DNA of 37,104 bases, from NCBI RefSeq assembly GCF_003334315.1, contig NZ_QOWR01000047.1; one strand, given 5' to 3'. The position numbers and the translations under genes were made by a program. Of the stretch, positions 1,103-37,104 are shown piece by piece. Every line of letters begins with the position of its first letter. Position 1 is the stretch's first letter. The notes beneath the pieces were generated by a model, which was not told where the DNA came from, ran no database searches, and saw nothing but the letters and a program-made list of their open reading frames with translations. Origin of the DNA: Escherichia coli. Lineage in GTDB: Bacteria > Pseudomonadota > Gammaproteobacteria > Enterobacterales > Enterobacteriaceae.

Positions 1103-1770
1103 TCCTTCCTCAATCTTGAGTAACCCCGTCGTTGAAGGGTTACTCAATTCATCCTGATTATACGCACTGCCATGGTGCAACTGCTTCAAATTAAAACTCT
1201 GGTCTGACTTCAAATAATTATCATATTATTTATTTGCGTAACGGGATATCAGAAAAAGATATTTTCCTCATTAATTTATTAGGATGTTTACATCGGATTT
1301 GTGATTAAGCGTGGTATTATTTATTAGCGAAATGTTTCTCTCTTGATTTTTTGCTCATTCATCAATTTTTCTTATTTTAAATTTTCAATCCCTTTGGGGA
1401 TTGACTTCTCTTTAGGGTAATTGATAGCCGTTAACTGACTGTTTTATGAGAAAAAGTGATATAACTTTTTATTCATTGCATAGCAAAAAATGTGATATTG
1501 CACGCACTATGTAATAACTTCTCCCACTGGCCTGGAACAACTGAACTTATTGAACTATGTTAGAAACTACGCCAGTTTAAGTATCTGCCTGAACTGGCAA
1601 GGTTAAGCACAATGATATATCGGCGCGTATTCCGTTGCATAAGTGTGCAAAAAAAGTGGAAGACGTATCGAGATTTGTGCGTCTGATCGAGACATGTTTA
1701 AAAATGGCTTGCCATAATTAACGTTGTATGTGATAACAGATTTCGGGTTAAACGAGGTACAGTTCTGTTT

Positions 1771-1914
1771 ATGTGTGGCATTTTCAGTAAAGAAGTCCTG
1801 AGTAAACACGTTGACGTTGAATACCGCTTCTCTGCCGAGCCTTATATTGGTGCCTCATGCAGTAATGTGTCAGTTTTATCTATGTTATGCCTGCGGGCGA
1901 AGAAAACAATCTAA
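1771..1914 (+). CDS. yobF: YobF, 47-aa small protein co-transcribed with cspC
   Basis: Manual translation from ATG 1771: [47 protein letters not shown]-stop (TAA 1912-1914); 12 nt upstream of cspC. Confidence 0.85.
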
Positions 1915-1926
1915 GGAATTTTTCAA

Positions 1927-2136
1927 ATGGCAAAGATTAAAGGTCAGGTTAAGTGGTTCAACGAGTCTAAAGGTTTTGGCTTCATTACTCCGGCTGATGG
2001 CAGCAAAGACGTGTTCGTACACTTCTCCGCTATCCAGGGTAATGGCTTCAAAACTCTGGCTGAAGGTCAGAACGTTGAGTTCGAAATTCAGGACGGCCAG
2101 AAAGGTCCGGCAGCTGTTAACGTAACAGCTATCTGA
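1927..2136 (+). CDS. cspC: cold-shock-domain protein CspC (69 aa)
   Basis: ORF track protein [37 protein letters not shown]... carries the RNP1 motif KGFGFI of the CspA family. Confidence 0.95.
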
Positions 2137-2182
2137 TCGAATCCACTGATCTGAAGTGTGAATACGCTTCAATCTCGCTATA

Positions 2183-2208
2183 AAGCCTCGTCGAATGCGA
2201 GGCTTTTT
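2183..2208 (+). terminator. intrinsic terminator downstream of cspC
   Basis: Hairpin GCCTCG-loop-CGAGGC followed by TTTTT (2204-2208). Confidence 0.6.
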
Positions 2209-2301
2209 ACTATGCTTTATCTTCGCTCCTGGCGTTCGGATATTTGCCCGCCGCGTGATTCGCGTTACACTTGCGGCCTTTAGTATCCTGCCGGAGTTGT
2301 C

Positions 2302-3111
2302 ATGTCTTTTTCCTGTCCACTTTGCCATCAGCCTCTTTCGCGTGAAAAAAACAGCTATATCTGTCCCCAGCGACATCAGTTTGATATGGCGAAAGAAGGG
2401 TATGTCAATCTGCTGCCCGTTCAGCATAAACGGTCTCGTGATCCGGGCGACAGCGCGGAAATGATGCAAGCACGCCGCGCATTCTTAGATGCCGGACATT
2501 ATCAGCCGCTGCGTGATGCAATTGTCGCCCAACTGAGGGAACGGCTTGATGATAAGGCCACGGCGGTGCTGGATATTGGCTGTGGTGAAGGGTATTACAC
2601 ACACGCATTTGCCGATGCGTTGCCCGAAATCACCACGTTTGGTCTGGATGTTTCGAAGGTAGCGATAAAAGCGGCGGCGAAACGCTATCCGCAGGTCACT
2701 TTTTGTGTCGCTTCCAGCCACCGTTTGCCGTTTTCCGATACCAGTATGGACGCCATAATACGTATTTACGCGCCGTGTAAAGCAGAAGAATTAGCACGAG
2801 TAGTGAAGCCCGGCGGCTGGGTCATTACTGCCACGCCGGGACCGCGACATTTGATGGAGCTGAAGGGGCTGATTTACAATGAAGTACATCTTCATGCACC
2901 TTATGCCGAACAACTGGAAGGTTTTACATTACAGCAGAGTGCGGAGTTGTGTTATCCGATGCGTCTTCGCGGTGATGAAGCCGTCGCATTATTGCAGATG
3001 ACGCCGTTTGCCTGGCGTGCGAAGCCAGAAGTCTGGCAAACACTGGCAGCAAAAGAAGTGTTCGACTGCCAGACGGACTTTAATATTCACCTCTGGCAGC
3101 GTTCTTATTAA
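2302..3111 (+). CDS. rlmA: 23S rRNA (guanine745-N1)-methyltransferase RlmA
   Basis: 269 aa; N-terminal Cys4 zinc ribbon (CPLCHQPL...CPQRHQFD) and SAM-binding motif [10 protein letters not shown] visible in the translation. Confidence 0.9.
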
Positions 3112-3689: not shown

Positions 3690-3900
3690 GGGGTATCCAT
3701 AAAACACATCATCGCCCCCAGCAAACATGCATACATGAACAACAAGCCGCGATGGTTTTCGCGTTCATGCAGGCATAGCGATTGATGTGCATATGGTCTC
3801 GCCTGACTGAAAGCATTCAGTCCGTACGTGCCACGTTTTGCAACGAGTATGTTGACACGTACATTTCCGGAATCTGGAAATCGGCTACTCCCCAAATGAG
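3690..3900 (-). promoter_or_regulatory. probable yybP-ykoY (Mn2+) riboswitch in the mntP 5' leader
   Basis: The minus-strand leader contains GGGGAGUAG (plus 3885-3893) followed by UGUCAACAUACUC ... CUUUCAGUCAGGCGAGACC, motifs I associate with this riboswitch class; E. coli mntP is known to carry one. Boundaries are approximate and the fold was not computed. Confidence 0.55.
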
Positions 3901-4037
3901 GGCGCAACCTTAACATATTTTGAGAATATAAAACAACTGTTGGAATATATTATTTCATTGCTTTATTGATAACGATTTACATTTAGATTTATATATCAAT
4001 GAAACGTTAAAATAAATAACAAATAAGGGAAGAGGTA

Positions 4038-4097
4038 ATATAGCCTAAGCTATGTCTGATTATTAAAAATACACTAAACATAGCTTTGGCTAAATTC
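4038..4097 (-). promoter_or_regulatory. two MntR-operator-like palindromes upstream of the mntP promoter
   Basis: ATAGC-CTAA-GCTAT palindrome at about 4038-4055 and AAACATAGC-TTTG-GCTAAATT at about 4077-4097, resembling the MntR operator as I recall it (AAACATAGC...GCTATGTTT). Confidence 0.4.
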
Positions 4098-4102
4098 ATA
4101 AC

Positions 4103-4561
4103 TTATTGAGTTGAAACGAGAAGCTTATAAATTTTTTCCAGATCGTCGATATTTCGAACGCGGATTAACAGCCGACGCTGTTCTAATTGCATCACCAACA
4201 CGCCATCTTCCGACAAGTTCATCGCTTTGATTCGGCTATATTCAATCCAGACATTGGCGAAGAAAAAACCTTTTTGTTTAAAGATGATCTTCGGAACGCG
4301 GATCCAGAATATATAAAAACCCATCAGAGCCAGTGCGCTTAATAACCATGTCGTTATTAACGCACCATGATTCGTGACGTTGTTATAGATAAGAATGACA
4401 ATCAATCCGACGAAGATAACGCTATCGATGCGACCACGCCGGAGCAAAGGAATTGCCAGCAGGGTGGGGCCATTACGGCGGGGCATGATGAACTGATCGT
4501 AGATCGCGAAGGCCAGGAGTGCGGCGATGAAAAGAATCAGTACCAGGTCCGTGATTGTCAT
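4103..4561 (-). CDS. yobD: inner-membrane protein YobD (152 aa)
   Basis: ORF track 152 aa with several hydrophobic segments; sits between mntP and manZ as in K-12. Confidence 0.85.
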
Positions 4562-7314: not shown

Positions 7315-7776
7315 TTGCTACCTCCTTTATTATCGTTAACACCTCAACGTGCCAGATGTATTTTTGAATCGTCGTCCACAATCGAATCGATTCAGATAAG
7401 GGCTACAACCAAAAACCCCTGCGTTTCGCGATTTATTTTAGATATCGAAAAAATTATTTTATGTGATGAAGATCCGTAATTTAACTTTCGATTAGCAGAA
7501 ATTTCGAAAGGTAAAATATCCTTGTCACATTCGTTTGCAAAGGAAGGTAAATCTTTGCCAAATCAGAGGCGTCTCTGATATGTTTAACTCCCGTTTAACA
7601 ACCATGGAGTATAGGGCAGTAGCCCGCAGTATGGATCGTCACCGACGTCATTTCAGCATCAGGCCTTTTAACGCCTGCCTTTCTGGCACTCTATGCCGCA
7701 CCTTTCGTTTGCATTTTGTCGTTACGCCTGCATTATTTCTGGCGTCGAATAGCTATTCCTTAAGCAGGAGCTTGTC

Positions 7777-9333
7777 ATGGAATTCTTAATGGACCCCTCA
7801 ATTTGGGCGGGGCTACTCACGCTTGTTGTTCTCGAAATTGTGCTGGGTATCGATAACCTGGTCTTCATCGCCATTCTTGCTGACAAACTGCCGCCAAAAC
7901 AACGCGATAAAGCGCGTTTGCTGGGGTTATCACTGGCGCTGATTATGCGTCTGGGGCTGCTGTCGCTGATTTCATGGATGGTCACGCTGACCAAACCGCT
8001 ATTTACCGTCATGGATTTCTCCTTCTCCGGACGCGACCTGATTATGTTGTTCGGGGGGATATTCTTGCTGTTCAAAGCAACAACCGAACTGCATGAACGG
8101 CTGGAAAACCGCGATCATGATTCCGGCCACGGTAAAGGCTACGCCAGTTTCTGGGTGGTCGTCACACAGATTGTCATCCTTGACGCCGTCTTCTCGTTGG
8201 ATGCGGTAATTACTGCAGTAGGGATGGTTAACCATCTGCCGGTGATGATGGCGGCGGTAGTGATTGCGATGGCGGTTATGTTGCTGGCATCCAAACCGCT
8301 GACGCGATTCGTTAACCAGCACCCCACGGTGGTGGTGCTCTGTCTGAGCTTCCTGTTAATGATTGGTCTGAGTCTGGTGGCAGAAGGTTTCGGTTTCCAC
8401 ATTCCGAAAGGTTACCTGTATGCCGCGATTGGCTTCTCGATCATCATCGAAGTGTTTAACCAGATTGCGCGTCGCAACTTTATTCGTCACCAGTCGACTT
8501 TGCCGCTGCGAGCGCGTACTGCCGATGCCATCCTGCGTTTGATGGGCGGGAAACGTCAGGCCAATGTTCAGCACGATGCCGATAACCCGATGCCGATGCC
8601 GATCCCGGAAGGTGCATTTGCCGAAGAAGAACGTTACATGATTAACGGCGTACTGACGCTGGCGTCGCGTTCTCTGCGCGGGATCATGACGCCGCGCGGT
8701 GAAATAAGCTGGGTTGACGCTAATCTCGGGGTCGATGAAATCCGCGAGCAGCTGCTCTCCTCACCGCACAGCCTGTTCCCGGTATGTCGCGGTGAACTGG
8801 ATGAAATCATCGGAATCGTACGTGCTAAAGAACTGCTGGTGGCGCTGGAAGAGGGCGTTGATGTGGCGGCGATTGCTTCGGCGTCTCCGGCGATTATCGT
8901 CCCGGAAACCCTCGATCCGATCAACCTGCTGGGCGTGCTGCGTCGCGCTCGCGGGAGCTTTGTTATCGTGACCAACGAGTTTGGTGTGGTACAAGGCTTG
9001 GTCACGCCGCTGGATGTGCTGGAAGCCATTGCGGGTGAATTCCCGGACGCTGACGAAACGCCGGAAATCATTACTGATGGTGACGGCTGGCTGGTAAAAG
9101 GCGGTACAGATTTGCATGCCTTGCAGCAGGCGCTTGATGTTGAGCACCTTGCCGATGACGATGATATCGCGACGGTCGCGGGCCTGGTGATCTCGGCAAA
9201 TGGTCACATTCCCCGTGTGGGCGATGTGATTGATGTAGGGCCACTGCATATCACCATCATTGAAGCCAATGATTATCGTGTTGATCTGGTTCGCATTGTT
9301 AAAGAGCAACCGGCGCACGATGAAGATGAGTAA
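7777..9333 (+). CDS. yoaE: TerC-family membrane protein with CBS and CorC/HlyC domains, YoaE
   Basis: 518-aa ORF; N-terminal polytopic membrane domain plus soluble C-terminal half; divergent from manX as in K-12. Confidence 0.9.
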
Positions 9334-9336
9334 GCG

Positions 9337-10935
9337 TTAACGTAACGGCATAATGGGCGTGATATGTCCATTATGCCGGGCGGGCGGCGGTTGGCTGCCC
9401 GCCAGCCATTTGGGAAAATCACGTAGCGGCATCGGCTGTGCGTACAAATACCCTTGCAAAATATGCACGCCATGACGGCGCAAATACTTCGCCTGTTCTT
9501 GCGTTTCCACGCCCTCCGCCACCAGTTCAATATTCAGTCTTTGCCCCAGCGCGATGATGATATCGGTCACCGTCGAGTTAACCGCGTCAGAACCTATAGC
9601 TGCGGTAAATGACTTATCAATTTTCAGCACGTCAGGACGTAATGTTTCAAGCCAGGAAAATGAACTGTTGCCGGTGCCGAAGTCATCAATCGCCAGTTTG
9701 ACGTTTTTACGATGTAGCTCGCGGGCAATCCGATAATCAACATCCAGTAAGGCATCGCGTTCGGTGATTTCGAGGATCAGTTGCTGAATCGGGTGAGCGC
9801 TAAACCAGTACTGATTGAGATCTTTTATCAGCACACCACGGCGAAAATGGCTGGGTGCGACGTTAATGCCAACATGAAACTGACTACTCATCGGGAAAAC
9901 ATGGCGCTGACGAATGGTTTCTGCCATCACATAGCGGGTCAGTGGCACAATTAAATGATGTTCTTCCGCGATAGGAATAAACACATCCGGTGAAATCCAG
10001 CCCTGACGCGGATTGTTCCAGCGCAGCAAAATCTCTACACCAATACATTGCTGGCTGCGCGCATTAAGCAAAGGCTGACAGAACAATTCGAACTCATGTT
10101 GCGCCAGGCCCAGATTGATTTCGCGGGAAAAGCTCATCCGGTAAGCGGTCGCCAGCCAGGCGATGTAGCCCACCAGTAAACTTAGCAGCACCGCCAGCGG
10201 TAATTGTGTTGGAAGATAGTGCCATGCCAGCGCCGTAGCCCCCGGACCATTAACGTTAATGGTAAAAGGAAAGCGTTGCGAAGAAACCTGATAGTTTTCA
10301 TTGTCTTCAGGTTGCGGAAGGGAATCTACCAGCCCATTACCATAGAGCAAATGCCGTTTGTCCACCGTCAGGCTGGCGCTACTGATTTGCGGCAGTTGTG
10401 GCTCAAGGAGCATTGCCGTCAGTAAGTCGATGTTAATCATCTCCATGACCCCAGCATTGCTACTGCCCGCTGCAGGCGTCCATTGAATCAAAACCGGACT
10501 GCCTTTAATCAGGGCACGGTCGATCGTCAGGCGTAAAAGTGGTTGCGGTGCAGGAAGTTCAGCCAGAATGTCCACGACGGGCACATTGCGATAACCAAAA
10601 ATGCTGGAGCAATAGAGTGTGCCGTCTTGCACCAGGCCAATGGATCGCACAGTTTGGAGTTTTGCCGCCTGTTTACGTAATGGCAAATGGGCGACAGAGC
10701 AGGGCAGACCAATCAGCGGAAGCAAGACTTCGCTACCTGCCTGTAGGGGAAGCAGTACTTTATCTAATTCCTCTACAGCGTGATTGGCGAATTGTACTAC
10801 CCGTTGTTGATTTAAGTTACGCTGTGAAATAAATCGCACGCTCAGGGTCGAAGCGAGCGTAACGAGTGCGCAAATCGTACAAACAATCATTCGATTACGG
10901 CGATAGGTTTTAATGATCCGTTGTGCTTTTTGCAT
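9337..10935 (-). CDS. pdeD: c-di-GMP phosphodiesterase PdeD (YoaD), membrane sensor with EAL domain
   Basis: DDFGTG motif (LAIDDFGTGNSSFSWL) typical of EAL domains; start placed at the second in-frame ATG (MQKAQRII..., 532 aa) rather than the 542-aa maximum; start choice is uncertain. Confidence 0.85.
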   Translation of the reverse strand: MQKAQRIIKTYRRNRMIVCTICALVTLASTLSVRFISQRNLNQQRVVQFANHAVEELDKVLLPLQAGSEVLLPLIGLPCSVAHLPLRKQAAKLQTVRSIGLVQDGTLYCSSIFGYRNVPVVDILAELPAPQPLLRLTIDRALIKGSPVLIQWTPAAGSSNAGVMEMINIDLLTAMLLEPQLPQISSASLTVDKRHLLYGNGLVDSLPQPEDNENYQVSSQRFPFTINVNGPGATALAWHYLPTQLPLAVLLSLLVGYIAWLATAYRMSFSREINLGLAQHEFELFCQPLLNARSQQCIGVEILLRWNNPRQGWISPDVFIPIAEEHHLIVPLTRYVMAETIRQRHVFPMSSQFHVGINVAPSHFRRGVLIKDLNQYWFSAHPIQQLILEITERDALLDVDYRIARELHRKNVKLAIDDFGTGNSSFSWLETLRPDVLKIDKSFTAAIGSDAVNSTVTDIIIALGQRLNIELVAEGVETQEQAKYLRRHGVHILQGYLYAQPMPLRDFPKWLAGSQPPPARHNGHITPIMPLR

Positions 10936-19616: not shown

Positions 19617-21302
19617 TTGAAGAAGGTTTGGCTTAACCGTTATCCCGCGGACGTTCCGACGGAGATCAACCCTGACCGTTATCAATCTCTGGTAGATATG
19701 TTTGAGCAGTCGGTCGCGCGCTACGCCGATCAACCTGCGTTTGTGAATATGGGGGAGGTAATGACCTTCCGCAAGCTGGAAGAACGCAGTCGCGCGTTTG
19801 CCGCTTATTTGCAACAAGGGTTGGGGCTGAAGAAAGGCGATCGCGTTGCGTTGATGATGCCTAATTTATTGCAATATCCGGTGGCGCTGTTTGGCATTTT
19901 GCGTGCCGGGATGATCGTCGTAAACGTTAACCCGTTGTATACCCCGCGTGAGCTTGAGCATCAGCTTAACGATAGCGGCGCATCGGCGATTGTTATCGTG
20001 TCTAACTTTGCTCACACACTGGAAAAAGTGGTTGATAAAACCGCCGTTCAGCACGTAATTCTGACCCGTATGGGCGATCAGCTATCTACGGCAAAAGGCA
20101 CGGTAGTCAATTTCGTTGTTAAATACATCAAGCGTTTGGTGCCGAAATACCATCTGCCAGATGCCATTTCATTTCGTAGCGCACTGCATAACGGCTACCG
20201 GATGCAGTACGTCAAACCCGAACTGGTGCCGGAAGATTTAGCTTTTCTGCAATACACCGGCGGCACCACTGGTGTGGCGAAAGGCGCGATGCTGACTCAC
20301 CGCAATATGCTGGCGAACCTGGAACAGGTTAACGCGACCTATGGTCCGCTGTTGCATCCGGGCAAAGAGCTGGTGGTGACGGCGCTGCCGCTGTATCACA
20401 TTTTTGCCCTGACCATTAACTGCCTGCTGTTTATCGAACTGGGTGGGCAGAACCTGCTTATCACTAACCCGCGCGATATTCCAGGGTTGGTAAAAGAGTT
20501 AGCGAAATATCCGTTTACCGCTATCACGGGCGTTAACACCTTGTTCAATGCGTTGCTGAACAATAAAGAGTTCCAGCAGCTGGATTTCTCCAGTCTGCAT
20601 CTTTCCGCAGGCGGTGGGATGCCAGTGCAGCAAGTGGTGGCAGAGCGTTGGGTGAAACTGACCGGACAGTATCTGCTGGAAGGCTATGGCCTTACCGAGT
20701 GTGCGCCGCTGGTCAGCGTTAACCCATATGATATTGATTATCATAGTGGTAGCATCGGTTTGCCGGTGCCGTCGACGGAAGCCAAACTGGTGGATGATGA
20801 TGATAATGAAGTACCACCAGGTCAACCGGGTGAGCTTTGTGTCAAAGGACCGCAGGTGATGCTGGGTTACTGGCAGCGTCCCGATGCTACCGATGAAATC
20901 ATCAAAAATGGCTGGTTACACACCGGCGACATCGCGGTAATGGATGAAGAAGGATTCCTGCGCATTGTCGATCGTAAAAAAGACATGATTCTGGTTTCCG
21001 GTTTTAACGTCTATCCCAACGAGATTGAAGATGTCGTCATGCAGCATCCTGGCGTACAGGAAGTCGCGGCTGTTGGCGTACCTTCCGGCTCCAGTGGTGA
21101 AGCGGTGAAAATCTTCGTAGTGAAAAAAGATCCATCGCTTACCGAAGAGTCACTGGTGACTTTTTGCCGCCGTCAGCTCACGGGATACAAAGTACCGAAG
21201 CTGGTGGAGTTTCGTGATGAGTTACCGAAATCTAACGTCGGAAAAATTTTGCGACGAGAATTACGTGACGAAGCGCGCGGCAAAGTGGACAATAAAGCCT
21301 GA
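19617..21302 (+). CDS. fadD: long-chain-fatty-acid--CoA ligase FadD
   Basis: Start placed at in-frame TTG 19617 ([14 protein letters not shown]...) giving 561 aa; AMP-binding motif [12 protein letters not shown]. Confidence 0.93.
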
Positions 21303-21320
21303 GCGTTAAGTCAGTCGTCA

Positions 21321-21347
21321 GACGCCGGTTAATCCGGCGTTTTTTTT
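21321..21347 (+). terminator. intrinsic terminator downstream of fadD
   Basis: ACGCCGG-TTAAT-CCGGCGT hairpin followed by seven T. Confidence 0.6.
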
Positions 21348-21371: not shown

Positions 21372-22499
21372 TTGAATTACCAAATGATTACCACGGACGA
21401 TGCGCTGGCTTCTTTGTGTGAAGCCGTCCGTGCCTTTCCGGCGATAGCCCTGGATACTGAATTTGTTCGTACGCGCACTTATTACCCGCAGCTGGGGTTG
21501 ATTCAACTTTTCGATGGCGAGCATCTGGCGCTAATCGATCCACTCGGGATCACCGACTGGTCACCGCTGAAAGCGATCCTGCGCGATCCGTCCATCACAA
21601 AATTTCTCCATGCAGGCAGTGAAGATCTGGAAGTGTTCCTCAATGTCTTTGGCGAATTACCACAACCCTTGATTGACACGCAAATCCTTGCTGCCTTCTG
21701 CGGACGCCCGATGTCATGGGGTTTCGCTTCCATGGTGGAAGAGTATTCCGGCGTTACGCTGGACAAGAGTGAATCGCGCACCGACTGGCTGGCCAGACCG
21801 CTGACCGAACGTCAGTGTGAATACGCAGCGGCGGATGTCTGGTATCTGTTACCGATCACCGCCAAGCTTATGGTAGAAACGGAGGCCTCCGGCTGGCTAC
21901 CTGCGGCGCTGGATGAATGCCGCCTGATGCAAATGCGTCGTCAGGAAGTCGTTGCGCCGGAAGATGCCTGGCGTGATATCACCAATGCCTGGCAATTACG
22001 CACACGCCAACTGGCCTGTCTGCAACTGTTAGCCGACTGGCGACTGCGCAAGGCGCGAGAGCGCGATCTGGCGGTGAACTTTGTCGTGCGTGAAGAGCAT
22101 TTGTGGTCGGTAGCGCGTTATATGCCGGGAAGTTTAGGCGAACTGGACAGCCTGGGTTTATCCGGTAGCGAAATCCGCTTTCACGGTAAAACGCTGCTAG
22201 CGCTGGTGGAAAAAGCGCAGACATTGCCGGAAGATGCCTTACCGCAGCCGATGCTTAACCTGATGGACATGCCGGGTTATCGTAAAGCGTTTAAAGCGAT
22301 TAAGTCGCTGATTACTGACGTGAGCGAAACGCATAAGATCAGCGCCGAATTGCTGGCATCGCGTCGGCAAATCAACCAACTGCTGAACTGGCACTGGAAA
22401 CTGAAACCGCAGAACAATTTGCCGGAGCTGATTTCCGGCTGGCGTGGTGAGCTGATGGCGGAAGCATTACACAATTTATTGCAGGAATATCCGCAGTAA
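21372..22499 (+). CDS. rnd: ribonuclease D
   Basis: 375 aa beginning at TTG 21372 (MNYQMITTDDALASLCEAVRAFPAIALDTEF...); DEDD-exonuclease ALDTEF motif; rnd is known to use a UUG start. Confidence 0.9.
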   Translation: MNYQMITTDDALASLCEAVRAFPAIALDTEFVRTRTYYPQLGLIQLFDGEHLALIDPLGITDWSPLKAILRDPSITKFLHAGSEDLEVFLNVFGELPQPLIDTQILAAFCGRPMSWGFASMVEEYSGVTLDKSESRTDWLARPLTERQCEYAAADVWYLLPITAKLMVETEASGWLPAALDECRLMQMRRQEVVAPEDAWRDITNAWQLRTRQLACLQLLADWRLRKARERDLAVNFVVREEHLWSVARYMPGSLGELDSLGLSGSEIRFHGKTLLALVEKAQTLPEDALPQPMLNLMDMPGYRKAFKAIKSLITDVSETHKISAELLASRRQINQLLNWHWKLKPQNNLPELISGWRGELMAEALHNLLQEYPQ

Positions 22500-22505
22500 A
22501 ATCTT

Positions 22506-22548
22506 CCGAAGCCGGACTGGGCGCGCTCAGCGCCACATCCGGCTTCGG
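22506..22548. repeat. REP-like palindrome between convergent rnd and yeaX
   Basis: CCGAAGCCGGA ... TCCGGCTTCGG perfect 11-bp arms around a GC-rich loop. Confidence 0.4.
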
Positions 22549-22552
22549 CAAA

Positions 22553-23518
22553 CTACAAATCCAACACCAGGCGTTTACCCTTCGCACGCGAACAACAGAT
22601 CAACATACTTTGCTGGCTGGCACGCTCTTCATCGCTAAAATATTGATCCCGATGGTCAGCTTCACCTTCCAGTATTGCTGTTTCGCAGGTTCCGCATACC
22701 CCTTCACGACATAAACATTCCACTTTCGCGGCTTTATTATTTTCAATAACCTGCAAAATAGTCATCTCTTCCGGCACCACAAACTCTTTTCCGGAACGGG
22801 CAAGCACCAGGGTAAAGGCATCGCCGGTTTTGTCTTCGATAGCAAATTGCTCAAAGTGCAGCGTATCGGCGGCGATGTCCAGACGCGCAGCTTCACTTCT
22901 TACCGCTTCAATTAGCGCCTCGGGGCCACAGGTATAAACGTGTGTGCCAGGTTCGATATCCGCCAATAATCGCGCTAATTCCAGTCGTGTTCCGGTTGAT
23001 GAGTGATGCAAGTGAACTTTCTCAGCCTGCGGATGCTGGACTAGCTCATCACGAAATGCGCAACTTTCTGGATTTCGCGAGCAGTAATGTAGCTGCCAGT
23101 CGACGTCGCTGTGTTGCAGCTCTGCCATGTGCGACAGGAAAGGGGTGATACCAATACCGCCCGCGATAAACAGATGCTTTCTGGCTGAGGGAATTAGCGC
23201 AAACAGGTTATTAGGCGTTGAAATCGTTAACCGATTGCCCACTTTTACCTGCTGATGCAAAAAGCGGGAACCGCCGCGCGAGTTTTCCTCCAGCCGAACG
23301 GCAATCTGATAACAAGAGGTGTCATGCGGCGAACTCAGTAGTGAATACGCATTGCTGTACTGGTTATCACCATCGCTCATCTGCACAATGACGTGACTTC
23401 CTCCGGTAAACGCAGGTAATGGTTTGCCATCGGTTGCCACCAGCGTGAAGCGTTTCACCTGTTCGGTAAGGGGTTCAACCTGGCTCACCTGTACTTCAAA
23501 CATTTGATAGTCTGACAT
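22553..23518 (-). CDS. yeaX: carnitine monooxygenase reductase subunit YeaX (CntB-like)
   Basis: 321 aa; C-terminal plant-type 2Fe-2S ferredoxin motif CREGVCGTCETAILEG. Confidence 0.88.
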   Translation of the reverse strand: MSDYQMFEVQVSQVEPLTEQVKRFTLVATDGKPLPAFTGGSHVIVQMSDGDNQYSNAYSLLSSPHDTSCYQIAVRLEENSRGGSRFLHQQVKVGNRLTISTPNNLFALIPSARKHLFIAGGIGITPFLSHMAELQHSDVDWQLHYCSRNPESCAFRDELVQHPQAEKVHLHHSSTGTRLELARLLADIEPGTHVYTCGPEALIEAVRSEAARLDIAADTLHFEQFAIEDKTGDAFTLVLARSGKEFVVPEEMTILQVIENNKAAKVECLCREGVCGTCETAILEGEADHRDQYFSDEERASQQSMLICCSRAKGKRLVLDL

Positions 23519-24729: not shown

Positions 24730-26175
24730 TCAGTTGTCGCCTTTGAATACGGTTCCCGCAGGGAGCACTGGCGTTTTTTCCAGGGCTTCAACCGGTGTCT
24801 GCGGGAGATAATGTTCAACTTGATGAGCCGGAATGTCGGCGTAATCCTGTTTCAGCCAGCGAATAAACCCGCCGACTTTCACCAGTAAAATGACGAGGAA
24901 GGGAAGGGCTGTGAGCACGACGGTGGTTTTCATCGTTTCCAGCGAAGCACCGGTAAACAAGATGGAAAGCGGGATCAGAGTGATCACCACGCACCAGAAA
25001 AGACGCAGCCCACGGTCAGGATCGTCACCTTCCTGGAGATTACGCGTACTGGTCGCCGCCATGGTGTAGGCCACTGCATCCATATGCGAGGCAAGGAAAA
25101 TAATCATCACGCCCAGGTATGCGGCGAGGAACAATTTACCGGCTGGCAACGACATCAGAACTTGCTGTACAGCTGTTTCGCCGCCCAGTGTTTCCAGCAC
25201 CTGTGGGACGTTGATTACGCCATTGATAAACTGATGAATGGCATAGCTTTCCATTACGCCAAAGAAGAACCAGCAACCGACGGTGCTGCCGAGGATCAGT
25301 CCCCAGATAACTTCTTTAATCTTACGACCGCGGGAAACGCGGGTGACAAACATTGCTACGCCAGGGGTGTATGAGATCCACCACAGCCAGTAGAAAACGG
25401 TCCAGTTGCGGGTAAATGAACCATCGCCAAGCGGATCGGTGAATAAGCTCATTTGCAGGAAGTTTTGCGTGGTCAGGCCGATGGCATTGATGATGCTGTT
25501 GGTAATAAATTCGGTTGGGCCGACAATCAGCACCAGTAATGGCAGCAGGAACGCGCCCCAGCCAACCATTTTGCTCAGACGTTGCAAACCGTTGTTGATA
25601 CCAATCCACGAGCTTAGGCAAAAAATGCCGCCGGAAAGCAGGATCACAAATGCCTGCACGGTGAAGTTATCGGGTAAACCGGTCAGCGCGGAAAGCCCAC
25701 GGGTAAAGGTTGCTGCGGTAACAACAAGGGAAATGGTCAGTGCGCCGACAGTGGCGATCAGGAACATCAAATCGACCAGTTTTCCCCATGGGCCTTGCGG
25801 GCGAACGCCGGTAATAGCAGCAATAATGCCGGAAAGGCTCAGACCTTTGTTTTTCCGCACATGAAAGTGATAAGCCATGATTAATGAGGCCAGCGTATAA
25901 GTTGCCCAGGCGCTGATGCCCCAGTGGAAGAAAGAGTAGGGAACGCTAAATTCGAGTGCCTGTTGTGAACGCGGTGCGATATTTAATCCAGGCGTTTGAT
26001 AATAATAGGCCCATTCAGCAACCCCCCAATAAAGCGTAGAAGAACCTAAACCGGCACAAATAAACATAAACAGCCAGGAGAGCGTGCTGTATTCCGGTTT
26101 TCCTTCGCCAAGACGAATATTGCCGTATTTACTGGTGGCTAAATAAATCACCAGTCCCATTGCCAGCAAAACCAA
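24730..26175 (-). CDS. yeaV: BCCT-family transporter YeaV
   Basis: 481 aa; the segment [22 protein letters not shown] aligns with the CaiT/BetT region I recall; the first codon is TTG (plus 26173-26175) with a stop 16 codons upstream. Confidence 0.85.
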
Positions 26176-26319
26176 TACCTGTACGGCGGAACCTAACGTA
26201 CGCGTAACAAAATTTGCATGTTACATAAATTAAACAATTAAGAATACGGAAAGCCATAAAACACGAAACGGAAACAATAAAAGGTGAAATGACGCAGGTT
26301 ATTTACTGCAAAGAACGAA

Positions 26320-33786: not shown

Positions 33787-34608
33787 ATGATGCACAGGTT
33801 GAATCTCAATGGCTATGAACCCGACCGACACCATGAAGCCGCGGTCGCATTTTGTATTCACGCCGGAACGGATGAGTTAACCAGTCCTGTACATCAGCAC
33901 CGCAAAGGACAGCTGATACTGGCGCTACATGGTGCAATTACCTGTACGGTGGAAAATGCTTTGTGGATGGTGCCGCCACAATATGCGGTTTGGATACCGG
34001 GCGGGGTGGAACATAGCAATCAAGTAACAGCTAATGCTGAACTCTGTTTTCTGTTTATCGAACCCAGCGCAGTGACAATGCCGACAACATGTTGCACATT
34101 GAAAATATCGCCCTTATGCCGGGAATTAATTTTAACCCTGGCAAACAGGACGACGACTCAGCGTGCTGAGCCAATGACCCGCAGATTAATTCAGGTCCTG
34201 TTTGATGAACTCCCTCAGCAGCCACAACAACAGCTGCACCTGCCCGTTTCTTCTCATCCTAAAATCCGCACGATGGTGGAGATGATGGCGAAAGGGCCTG
34301 TCGAGTGGGGGGCATTGGGGCAATGGGCTGGCTTTTTTGCGATGAGTGAACGCAATCTTGCCCGACTGATAGTAAAAGAGACGGGGTTGAGTTTTCGCCA
34401 GTGGCGTCAGCAGTTACAGCTGATTATGGCGCTTCAGGGATTAGTGAAAGGCGATACTGTACAGAAAGTTGCTCATACGCTGGGGTATGATTCAACAACG
34501 GCCTTTATTACTATGTTTAAGAAAGGCCTGGGGCAAACGCCAGGCCGATATATTGCGAGATTAACTACTGTTTCCCCACAATCAGCGAAACCAGACCCGC
34601 GGCAATAA
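33787..34608 (+). CDS. nimR: AraC-family regulator NimR (YeaM)
   Basis: 273 aa; cupin-like N-terminal half and C-terminal AraC-type HTH region. Confidence 0.88.
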
Positions 34609-35180: not shown

Positions 35181-35285
35181 ATGAACGATCAAATGTTTGT
35201 CGAGACACTGATTATCACGTCATCGTTTTTTGCCATTGCTGTTGTACTGGTTTTGTCCGTTCTTCTTATCGAACGGACCGGCTAG
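35181..35285 (+). CDS. yoaI: YoaI, 34-aa hydrophobic peptide
   Basis: Manual translation [34 protein letters not shown]-stop (TAG 35283-35285). Confidence 0.7.
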
Positions 35286-35789
35286 TTACGCAGTGCGGCG
35301 GAAATTGACCAGTTCTGGTTGCGCAATGCGCAAATAATCCGCGGTTTTCAAAATAACGGATTTATCCAGCATGCCTGCATTGAAGGCGATTTCATCAAAT
35401 CGTTCGAAGAGTAGAGGGTCGGCAACCAGTTTGAGTTTTGGATGGAAGCTGAAAGGGGGGATCGCGCCGAAGACACAGCCTGTGAGTTCATCGACTTCCG
35501 CCGGGCTGGCCAACGAAGCGCGTAATCCGCCTATATGGCTGGCGAGTTGGCTCAGATCGGCCTGTTGATCGGCTGCGAGGATCGCCAGAACATGTTGATT
35601 TACGCCATTGCCTTTGACTTTACATACCAGTGCCTTAGCACCCTGGCCTAGAGCGGTGCCACGAATTTCTGACACCGCTTCACATTTACCTACCGCTTCA
35701 TGGGTAACGACGCGGAAGTCAGCACCTTCTTGTGATAATAAAGCGATTAACCGCTGATGCGTCACGCTTCCTTTAGCCATTTCAGTCAT
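35286..35789 (-). CDS. yeaK: YbaK/ProX-type aminoacyl-tRNA deacylase YeaK
   Basis: 167-aa ORF; its stop codon abuts the yoaI stop. Confidence 0.85.
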   Translation of the reverse strand: MTEMAKGSVTHQRLIALLSQEGADFRVVTHEAVGKCEAVSEIRGTALGQGAKALVCKVKGNGVNQHVLAILAADQQADLSQLASHIGGLRASLASPAEVDELTGCVFGAIPPFSFHPKLKLVADPLLFERFDEIAFNAGMLDKSVILKTADYLRIAQPELVNFRRTA

Positions 35790-35831: not shown

Positions 35832-37027
35832 TCATGAACGGCTGTTTTTGTTCTGCTTATTGACATATAAACGCTCATCGGAAGCTTTATACGCATCATG
35901 TAACGTATCGTTTTCTTTCATCGCGTAAATACCGGAAGAGAAGCCGATCTCTTTCTGCGGCGCGATATGTTGCAGACGTTTTTCGATACGTTCAGGCAGT
36001 TGTGCTGCAATTTGCGGCGTCGAATCGACAAGAATGATGCAGAATTCATCGCCACCGAGTCGGATGGCATAATCACTTTTACGAATCGACTGTTTAATCG
36101 CCTGAGCTAATAACGTAATCGCTAAATCCCCCTCCTGATGACCGAGGGTGTCATTTATTTGCTTTAACTTGTCCATGTCAATAGCAATAAACATCACCGA
36201 AGAACCGGATTGCACCAGTTTCTGCAACCGCTGCTCCAGTTCAGGGGTTAAAATTTTGCGATTATACAGTCCAGTCATCGCATCACTAATATTTTCTCGC
36301 GACACATTTTGGTATAAACGGAAGTGCATCCGCACCATATTCAGCAAAATTAACGCCGTCAAAATCCAGAACAGAACGCTTTTCCACGAAGACGTGATAA
36401 AGTAAAGAATATCAATGGATAACGAGACACGAATGCCGCCCGGTAAGTCATGGACGTAACTGACATACTGGAACAGATTATCTTCGCTCTGGTTGATGAT
36501 AATGTCGCGCCCCGAATCGGTATCGGTTAGCGTGACATTGAGAAAACGCCAGAGGAGAGGGCGGTCATGAGTATAAAAGATATTCCGCAGATTGTTTTTG
36601 TTAATATCCAGCAGCACAATCCCTTTTAGCTGCCCTGCGACATATACCGGCGTCAGCAAACTCATCACGTTCTGTTTAGTACGCTGATCCTGGTAAATGC
36701 TCGACAATACGGTACGCCCGGTAAATACCTTTTCAATATCTTTGCGATCGATGCCAATACTTCCTGACTGCAGGAAGGACCAGTTATTCATCGCAAAGTA
36801 TTCAACATTAACCGGCTCATAAAAATAGACATAGCGGTCATTGAGATCGAGATAATAGTGAAATTTCTCTTCGGCCATCCCAAGACCTGAACCGTAATCA
36901 TCCTGGTGGCGGTTGCCTTCCACTGCCTGATCAAAAGCGGGTAATAGTGCTGCAGCTTCCACAATTGTGTCGCAGTCAGTGGATGCGGTTTGTAGTGTGC
37001 CGCGTAAGCCCGGGTATTTATGGGCAG
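35832..37027 (-). pseudogene. dgcJ: diguanylate cyclase DgcJ (YeaJ), 5'-truncated by an IS insertion
   Basis: GGDEF motif (RLGGDEFCIILV) and one TM segment. The ORF cannot extend upstream: stops occur in all three minus frames within 37039-37067, and the first 12 codons of the 410-aa track ORF are IS-derived. About 398 native codons remain versus about 496 aa recalled for K-12; a periplasmic-type sensor region with no upstream TM or signal peptide. Confidence 0.7.
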
Positions 37028-37104
37028 TGGATTGGCCCCTATATTTCCATACACTTTTTATCACTTAACCCATTACTGGTTCGCCGCCGCAGATATTCCC
37101 GTGG
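37028..37104 (-). mobile_element. IS3-family (IS2-like) insertion sequence, terminal 77 bp (element continues off the right edge)
   Basis: Minus strand reads ...PREYLRRRTSNGLSDKKCMEI-stop then GGTTAAGTGATAAAAAGTGTATGGAAATATAGGGGCCAATCCA, close to the IS2 OrfB C-terminus and right inverted repeat as I recall them (roughly 85% similar by eye, not identical). Terminus at plus 37028. Confidence 0.75.

Follow-up and report, generated by a model that had tools for sequence, protein, structure and literature searches.

What ends the transcripts of two convergent genes when almost no room is left between their stop codons? We examined this question for yoaE (mgpA) and pdeD, which converge in a 37,104-nt stretch of Escherichia coli DNA (RefSeq assembly GCF_003334315.1, contig NZ_QOWR01000047.1). 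The whole stretch is referred to here as the window, and its plus strand is the yoaE-sense strand. The functional feature of the junction is best read as a pair of abutting stem-loops at 9346-9403, rather than as the 3-bp spacer between the stop codons. We think it reasonably likely that this double hairpin, which lies in the codons of the PdeD C-terminal tail, is the protective 3' stem-loop of a Rho-terminated yoaE (mgpA) mRNA, overprinted on coding sequence. The overlap of the two transcripts has already been catalogued, and the conserved, dual-coded double hairpin is the added result, which we regard as modestly interesting.

Geometry of the convergent junction

An earlier note on this DNA had placed the two stop codons 3 bp apart on opposite strands. 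Direct reading of the sequence bore this out, in agreement with the open reading frame (ORF) translations and with RefSeq. On the plus strand yoaE stops with TAA at 9331-9333, and the pdeD stop TAA, on the minus strand at 9337-9339, is seen on the plus strand as TTA. Plus-strand positions 9325-9342 read GATGA G TAA GCG TTA ACG, of which 9330-9339 is G-TAA-GCG-TTA.

7777-9333, plus strand: yoaE (mgpA) coding sequence (CDS), 518 amino acids, TerC-CBS-CorC cation transport protein (ORF list, translation and annotation)
9334-9336, no strand: spacer GCG between the stop codons, 3 bp (direct sequence reading)
9337-10935, minus strand: pdeD CDS, 532 amino acids, stop codon at 9339-9337 (translation, Pfam and annotation)

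RefSeq strain CP53 has the same limits for both genes and matched the queried stretch 8800-9900 at 100%. The layout is identical in MG1655 (pdeD 1898427-1900025, yoaE 1900029-1901585), with 18 mismatches in 3.5 kb. The junction was present in 5,421 of 5,426 complete E. coli genomes, in one copy each, and identity over 111 nt at the junction was at least 99% in 4,700 of 5,424.

The 3-bp spacing itself is ordinary and carries no statistical distinction. Four of the nine convergent pairs annotated in the window are tight, with an overlap or a gap of at most 3 bp between stops, namely rlmA/mntP (-4), yoaE/pdeD (+3), nimR/yeaL (-44) and yoaI/yeaK (0), where negative values denote overlap in bp. Two extra 50-kb samples of MG1655 held two tight pairs out of ten (ypdC/fryA +2, yfeH/ypeB -4) and three out of six (amiD/ybjS -4, ybjD/ybjX -4, ycaM/ycaN 0), respectively. 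Leaving yoaE/pdeD itself aside, 8 of 24 convergent pairs in the 137 kb sampled were tight. Across 80 Enterobacteriaceae loci, retrieved with the C-terminal half of YoaE as query, the convergent order was conserved and the exact gap drifted, ranging from a 24-bp overlap to a 91-bp gap with a mode of 6 bp (32 loci) and 3 bp in nine loci. The gap was mostly 33-91 bp in the Klebsiella, Raoultella and Kluyvera group. Two records, L022 (recorded as Chryseobacterium sp. 18061) and L077 (Chitiniphilus shinanonensis), carry an Enterobacteriaceae-type yoaE with 83-88% amino acid identity, L022 with pdeD too, and are probably contaminated or mislabelled assemblies.

A double hairpin within pdeD

The same note held that the junction has no intergenic terminator. 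This is trivially true, as 3 bp are too few to contain one, and also misleading, as the yoaE stop is followed after 12 nt by a strong double stem-loop that lies wholly within pdeD.

9346-9378, plus strand: hairpin A, 11-bp perfect palindrome CGGCATAATGG/CCATTATGCCG (inverted repeat and folding)
9379-9403, plus strand: hairpin B, GC-rich 10-bp stem GGCGGGCGGC/GCTGCCCGCC, abutting hairpin A with zero spacer
9340-9408, minus strand: PdeD C-terminal tail WLAGSQPPPARHNGHITPIMPLR, beyond the Pfam EAL model, its codons encoding both hairpins

On yoaE-sense RNA hairpin A grows to 15 bp, including two G-U pairs. Its predicted fold was -21.9 kcal/mol on the plus strand (z -5.8) and -16.0 kcal/mol on the minus strand, and the corresponding values for hairpin B were -22.7 and -17.4 kcal/mol. 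The A+B module of 58 nt folded at -45.9 kcal/mol on the plus strand (z -6.7 against shuffles) and at -34.5 kcal/mol on the minus strand. Among 14,818 sixty-nt segments folded along both strands of the window (mean -12.3, sd 4.7 kcal/mol), 9346-9405 on the plus strand ranked first at -47.3 kcal/mol, and the next unrelated site, in the rnd/yeaX intergenic terminator region, reached -36.9 kcal/mol. Eight other sampled tight convergent junctions (gap of at most 3 bp, or overlap) gave only -18.8 to -33.2 kcal/mol. Local structure at the other three tight junctions of the window, rlmA/mntP, nimR/yeaL and yoaI/yeaK, was weaker than at yoaE/pdeD.

The convergent rnd/yeaX intergenic region (22491-22565), where each strand reached about -34 to -37 kcal/mol, comes second in the window for strength of local structure. 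It looks like a classical bidirectional terminator or a repetitive extragenic palindromic (REP) element.

Hairpins A and B both have the GC-rich stem-loop of an intrinsic terminator. The U-tract of such a terminator is absent from the plus strand, where A runs directly into B and B is followed by AGCCAUUUGGG/AGCCAUUU (3 U in 8 nt). On the minus strand the sequence after hairpin A, UUACGUUAACGCUUACU/UUACGUUA, has 4 U in 8 nt and is likewise no U-tract. The consensus terminator scan made no call at the yoaE/pdeD junction, and because the sequence does not fit the loop and T-run rules of that scan, the hairpins were assessed by folding. Rfam yielded no family for them at either the gathering or a permissive threshold, and the best chance match, to mir-2001, scored 22 bits where 74 are required.

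REP palindromes and bacterial interspersed mosaic elements (BIME) are stable and extragenic, and they block 3' exonucleases and stabilise mRNA. We rejected a REP/BIME element as a candidate here, as the sequence occurs at one place per E. coli genome (lowest, median and highest count all 1) and has one match in the window. Unlike REP/BIME, the yoaE/pdeD hairpin sequence is single-copy, has no similarity to the REP consensus and lies within a CDS.

Transcript overlap and Rho termination

Because the stops are 3 bp apart, any complete mRNA with a 3' untranslated region (UTR) longer than 3 nt overlies the opposite gene. The earlier note had taken the two transcripts to overlap and had named, as the contrary outcome, termination inside the coding regions without overlap. 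For complete mRNAs the stop spacing makes that outcome impossible. Overlap is well supported for yoaE into pdeD, by the geometry, by published listing as an excludon and by data obtained with bicyclomycin (BCM), and for pdeD into yoaE the support is indirect. The pair belongs to the 165 convergent excludons of MG1655 for which RNA-seq coverage supported the call in at least 50% of 58 transcriptomes (PMC12288877), and like the others in that class its convergent transcripts overlap at their 3' ends. That listing uses RNA-seq coverage only and leaves the embedded hairpins unmentioned.

7555-7584, plus strand: promoter-like site for the yoaL-yoaE (mgpA) transcript (sigma-70-like scan; TTGCCA-18-TATGTT, extended TG)
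7631-7789, plus strand: yoaL leader ORF, with a 13-nt overlap with the yoaE start (RefSeq)
9450-9577, plus strand: candidate Rho utilisation (rut) region on yoaE-sense RNA, C-rich and G-poor
9585, plus strand: top Rho score on the yoaE strand, antisense to pdeD (PMC7815308 supplementary file 2, 1899777 (-))
10919, minus strand: Rho termination region at the pdeD 5' end (PMC7815308 supplementary file 2, 1898443 (+), internal to pdeD)

DirectRNA-seq with and without BCM defined a Rho region at MG1655 position 1899777 (-), on the yoaE strand and antisense to pdeD (PMC7815308 supplementary file 2). This position corresponds to 9585 in the window, 252 nt beyond the yoaE stop. Upstream and downstream reads were 51 and 9 without BCM and 103 and 100 with BCM (Rho score 5.5, p = 1.2e-6), which is not the behaviour of a Rho-independent site. 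As there is no U-tract and no scan call, and as downstream coverage equals upstream coverage under BCM, the hairpins do not work as efficient intrinsic terminators of yoaE-strand transcription. The plus-strand stretch 9450-9577, which separates them from the Rho peak, contains 35-38% C but 18% G, giving a C/G ratio near 2.1 (78-nt windows).

Full-length reads from SMRT-Cappable-seq resolved yoaE as a monocistronic unit and sdaA-pdeD as a read-through unit (PMC6131387). The transcription start site (TSS) given there for monocistronic b1816 is 1901769 on the reverse strand, which falls at 7593 in the window, just downstream of the promoter-like site; the tables of that study give TSS and operon membership, without 3' ends. 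According to PMC12421838, the intervening yoaL may act as an Mg2+-responsive leader peptide for mgpA. On the pdeD strand, the Rho region at 1898443, 16 nt into pdeD, had upstream/downstream reads of 113/18 without BCM and 135/206 with BCM (Rho score 9.6; PMC7815308). Most sdaA-derived transcription therefore stops before crossing pdeD in LB medium.

A probable protective stem-loop at the yoaE 3' end

Dar & Sorek (2018; PMC6061677) described Rho-dependent 3' ends just downstream of stable stem-loops that lack a U-tract and protect against polynucleotide phosphorylase (PNPase) and RNase II, with rut sites immediately downstream. The yoaE 3' region resembles this class in having a U-tract-less stem-loop past the stop codon and close to the ORF end, a C-rich, rut-like stretch downstream and BCM-sensitive read-through. 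It differs in that the structure is a double hairpin inside a convergent CDS, constrained by codons. From this likeness we infer that the steady-state 3' end of yoaE mRNA lies at the hairpins, and that the role of the hairpins is protection from exonucleases.

In the mechanism proposed here, RNA polymerase coming from yoaE would cross the stop codon and both hairpins with little intrinsic termination, for lack of a U-tract. Rho would load on the untranslated C-rich RNA at about 9450-9577 and terminate transcription within about 250 nt. Exonucleases acting 3' to 5' would trim the transcript back to the hairpins, which would define the steady-state 3' end and shield it. In that case the mRNA would stably overlap pdeD, in antisense, by about 70 nt. 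With the hairpins near the yoaE stop and Rho ending the read-through, stable overlap should be short and is probably not the open-ended kind.

Relatives without pdeD or its tail

Several relatives lack pdeD or the end of it, and their yoaE 3' regions bear on whether the structure belongs to yoaE. Intestinirhabdus alba (L051) has lost pdeD, so that sdaA is the convergent neighbour of yoaE. It keeps a remnant of the tail, ARHSGQKPSAMPLR followed by a stop. Its hairpin A pairs without mismatch over 14 bp, CGGCATAGCGGACG/TGTCCGCTATGCCG, and departs from the E. coli sequence by two compensatory double changes. Locus L074, in which pdeD is also absent, has an intergenic hairpin with A-like arms, AAAAAAGGCATCACGGCC-GCCC-GGCCGTGATGCCTTATCTTT, flanked by A6 and a T-rich run; judged by its sequence, it has the form of a classical bidirectional terminator. 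L022, L050 and L076 have CAAAATAACGGGC...GCCCGTTATG and then T-rich sequence. Klebsiella-type PdeD is short and ends soon after WLA, and four loci of this type (L058, L063, L079 and L081) have a canonical hairpin and T-run after yoaE, on the yoaE strand. An automated single-hairpin classifier applied to the 80 loci was noisy and chose stems straddling A and B, and was used only for the T-run terminators of L058, L079 and L081. Across relatives the stop codon drifts by tens of nt while the hairpins stay in place. Based on L051, L074 and the Klebsiella-type cases, a structure at the yoaE 3' end appears to be a constant need, found inside or outside the pdeD ORF depending on lineage.

Convergent genes reportedly share bidirectional intrinsic terminators in SEnd-seq work, and the hairpins could be such a Rho-independent terminator within pdeD, stopping the yoaE and pdeD transcripts on their respective strands. 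The likeness lies in a palindrome at convergent genes that folds on both strands, in the A-run/T-run flanks of hairpin-A homologues in some relatives (L074, L022 and L076, with T-rich sequence also in L050), and in the UUACGUUAACGCUUACU that follows hairpin A on the E. coli minus strand. The yoaE strand of E. coli lacks the U-tract, however: B directly follows A, then comes AGCCAUUUGGG, and the consensus scan is empty at the junction. Read-through on that strand is Rho-dependent, and the near-equal coverage under BCM indicates that the hairpins alone do not halt RNA polymerase there. The minus-strand version of hairpin A is also the weaker one, with an 11-nt loop and just 4 U in the following 8 nt. 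We therefore consider this explanation unlikely, and a bidirectional intrinsic terminator in some of the relatives plausible.

Coding constraint and strand of action

Pfam models cover PdeD residues 43-240 (CSS-motif) and 273-501 (EAL) of 532, and the hairpins occupy the last 20 codons of the gene. Hairpin A corresponds exactly to the codons of R-H-N-G-H-I-T-P-I-M-P and hairpin B to those of LAGSQPPPA. Escherichia, Salmonella, Citrobacter, Enterobacter and Kosakonia share the conserved tail, which the orthologues from Klebsiella, Raoultella and Kluyvera lack or have replaced. The PPPA run of the tail (9382-9390, minus strand) is kept in most tail-bearing genera and shares its bases with one arm of hairpin B. 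Pro-Pro-Pro runs usually need elongation factor P (EF-P) for efficient translation.

The element could then serve pdeD, either because the tail peptide (PPP...HNGH) is selected or because the structure acts on pdeD mRNA, through ribosome slowing or 3'-end protection. A peptide so well conserved over many genera is what this explanation would predict. We recoded the 72 nt of the PdeD tail that run from W to the stop, using synonymous codons sampled from the respective pdeD gene. The real E. coli tail folded at -47.6 kcal/mol on the plus strand, compared with -27.1 kcal/mol for recoded tails (z -4.4, 0 of 300 as stable), and at -35.2 compared with -21.4 kcal/mol on the minus strand (z -2.9, 1 of 300). 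Recoding z-scores were negative on both strands in 53 of 53 Enterobacteriaceae loci, with means of -3.0 (plus) and -2.5 (minus). Hairpin stability is thus not a by-product of the PdeD peptide, since synonymous recodings are far less stable. The minus-strand result also speaks for action on pdeD mRNA.

We scored base pairing in alignment A1, which comprises 48 sequences, with the structure taken from the E. coli fold and counts made without correction for phylogeny. Cells were paired in the E. coli structure in 80% of cases, compared with 32-49% when partner columns were slid. Double changes were seen in 43 cells; shuffling gave 22.5, and as many as 43 in 0 of 500 trials. One compensatory example is AAT/ATT in E. 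coli, which is AAC/GTT in Citrobacter. The register of hairpin B differs between genera, with CTGGCGGGG/CCCCGCCAG in Enterobacter versus GGCGGGC/GCCCGCC in E. coli, through other synonymous Pro/Ala/Gly codons. Non-Watson-Crick cells were G-U on yoaE-sense RNA in 161 cases and A-C in 35, an A-C on that strand being a G-U on the pdeD strand. Once the three G-U pairs of E. coli were set aside, the counts were 94 and 33, and 15 pairs favoured G-U compared with four that favoured A-C. This asymmetry is no more than suggestive of action on yoaE-sense RNA.

One common variant goes the other way. The 9354 T>C change, frequent in E. coli (for example in sequence type (ST) 131), alters PdeD from I to V. 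On the yoaE strand it puts a C-A mismatch in place of one U-A pair in hairpin A, and on the pdeD strand it leaves a G-U pair. The variant resembles a step on the way to the C-G pair of Citrobacter and Escherichia sp. L002. EC-14-2-9 has a 4-nt deletion at the hairpin A/B boundary, with pdeD annotated as frameshifted (variant strains L085, L084, L083).

That the element serves pdeD is rather improbable. The peptide by itself leaves the stability unexplained, a hairpin with compensatory changes survives the deletion of pdeD in L051, and the Klebsiella, Raoultella and Kluyvera orthologues have no tail, yet the yoaE-side terminator is kept. Drift of the stop codon past stationary hairpins and G-U pairs that favour the yoaE strand argue in the same direction, and a structure inside an ORF would be melted by translating ribosomes.

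Possible antisense regulation and StyR-291

StyR-291 (FJ746409) is a 61-nt antisense non-protein-coding RNA (npcRNA) candidate whose cDNA was cloned from S. Typhi (PMC2943607) and which was placed by PMC12421838. Its length is close to the 58 nt of the A+B module, and we infer their identity from size and placement. In our reading StyR-291 is probably a protected 3'-end fragment of yoaE mRNA and not a gene of its own.

The overlap could also be a regulatory excludon, in which induction of yoaE represses pdeD by antisense pairing, RNase III or polymerase collision, or a source of small RNA (sRNA), with StyR-291 as a 3'-UTR-derived RNA. The presence of the pair in the convergent excludon list (PMC12288877) and the antisense cDNA of S. 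Typhi fit this explanation, as do the Mg2+-inducible expression of yoaE (PMC12421838) and the low transcription of pdeD, which is Rho-limited at its own 5' end. Tight convergent junctions are common, however, and overlap by itself does not imply regulation. StyR-291 gave neither a northern signal (PMC2943607) nor a complementation phenotype (PMC12421838), and the hairpin module lacks the U-tail typical of Hfq-binding sRNAs. We find this explanation quite improbable.

That the palindromes are a DNA-level feature (a protein-binding site, cruciform or REP-like repeat) or a chance by-product is very improbable: hairpin A is a perfect DNA palindrome of 11 bp, but no shuffle of the 58-nt module and no synonymous recoding of the tail reaches the plus-strand stability, the strand-asymmetric G-U pattern points to RNA, and Rfam has no family for it.

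Several points weigh against a protective yoaE 3' stem-loop and temper our confidence in it. The position of the Rho peak is coarse, being derived from 800-nt windows and low read counts (PMC7815308). Curated Term-seq 3' ends for yoaE/pdeD were absent from supplementary files 1 and 3 of the same study, and neither gene was among those in the TERMITe supplements. StyR-291 gave no northern signal (PMC2943607). The peptide PPPARHNGH in the PdeD tail is itself conserved, so the dual constraint is not fully separable. In Enterobacter-type loci the minus-strand recoding z-score was equal to or beyond that of the plus strand, and the 9354 T>C variant favours the pdeD strand. Shared ancestry inflates both the G-U asymmetry and the covariation counts, to which a codon-position bias on the pdeD strand may also contribute.

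Other features of the window

Tight junctions. The other tight junctions are at 3108-3111 (rlmA/mntP), 34565-34608 (nimR/yeaL) and 35285-35286 (yoaI/yeaK). PMC12288877 also names yeaK-yoaI, yeaL-nimR and yeaO-yoaF (21-bp gap) as excludons, all of them in this window. At about position 3094 of the window, Adams 2021 places a Rho region (1906268 (-)) that falls within rlmA, antisense to mntP.

RNA features. The mntP leader contains a Mn2+ (yybP-ykoY) riboswitch at 3805-3901 (minus strand) that scored 41.8 bits. The default Rfam gathering scan missed it because this is under the gathering score of 45. Between the mntP leader and the end of yobD, a symmetric hairpin at 4026-4107 gave chance matches to miRNA precursors on both strands and is probably a terminator or a REP-type palindrome. 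The Rfam cspA thermoregulator matched 1751-2211 (plus strand, 135.7 bits), a span that covers yobF and a csp gene annotated as cspE in CP53 and known as cspC in K-12. The sRNA sroD matched 21261-21346 (plus strand, 115.2 bits), at the 3' end of fadD and upstream of rnd.

Pseudogenes. In the CP53 annotation, yeaV and a gene with a diguanylate-cyclase domain (24730-26211 and 35832-37104) are N-terminally truncated pseudogenes, the second of which adjoins an IS5 transposase and the end of the window.

Significance of the dual-coded element

The last 20 codons of pdeD may form a long-lived dual-coding module, in which a yoaE 3' structure was captured by, or co-evolved with, the PdeD extension, and in which the antisense overlap or released StyR-291 would couple mgpA transcription, induced by Mg2+ or envelope stress, to the level of a cyclic di-GMP (c-di-GMP) phosphodiesterase. 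We offer this larger scenario as a tentative and improbable one.

A protective yoaE 3' stem-loop would be an example of an RNA 3'-end structure carried on the CDS of an opposing gene and kept by synonymous-site selection across Enterobacteriaceae. Terminator finders that are limited to intergenic DNA or that need U-tracts miss such elements. Synonymous changes in the pdeD tail may be non-neutral, and deletion of pdeD could destabilise the mRNA of yoaE/mgpA, whose product MgpA has a Mg2+-stress and virulence phenotype in Salmonella.

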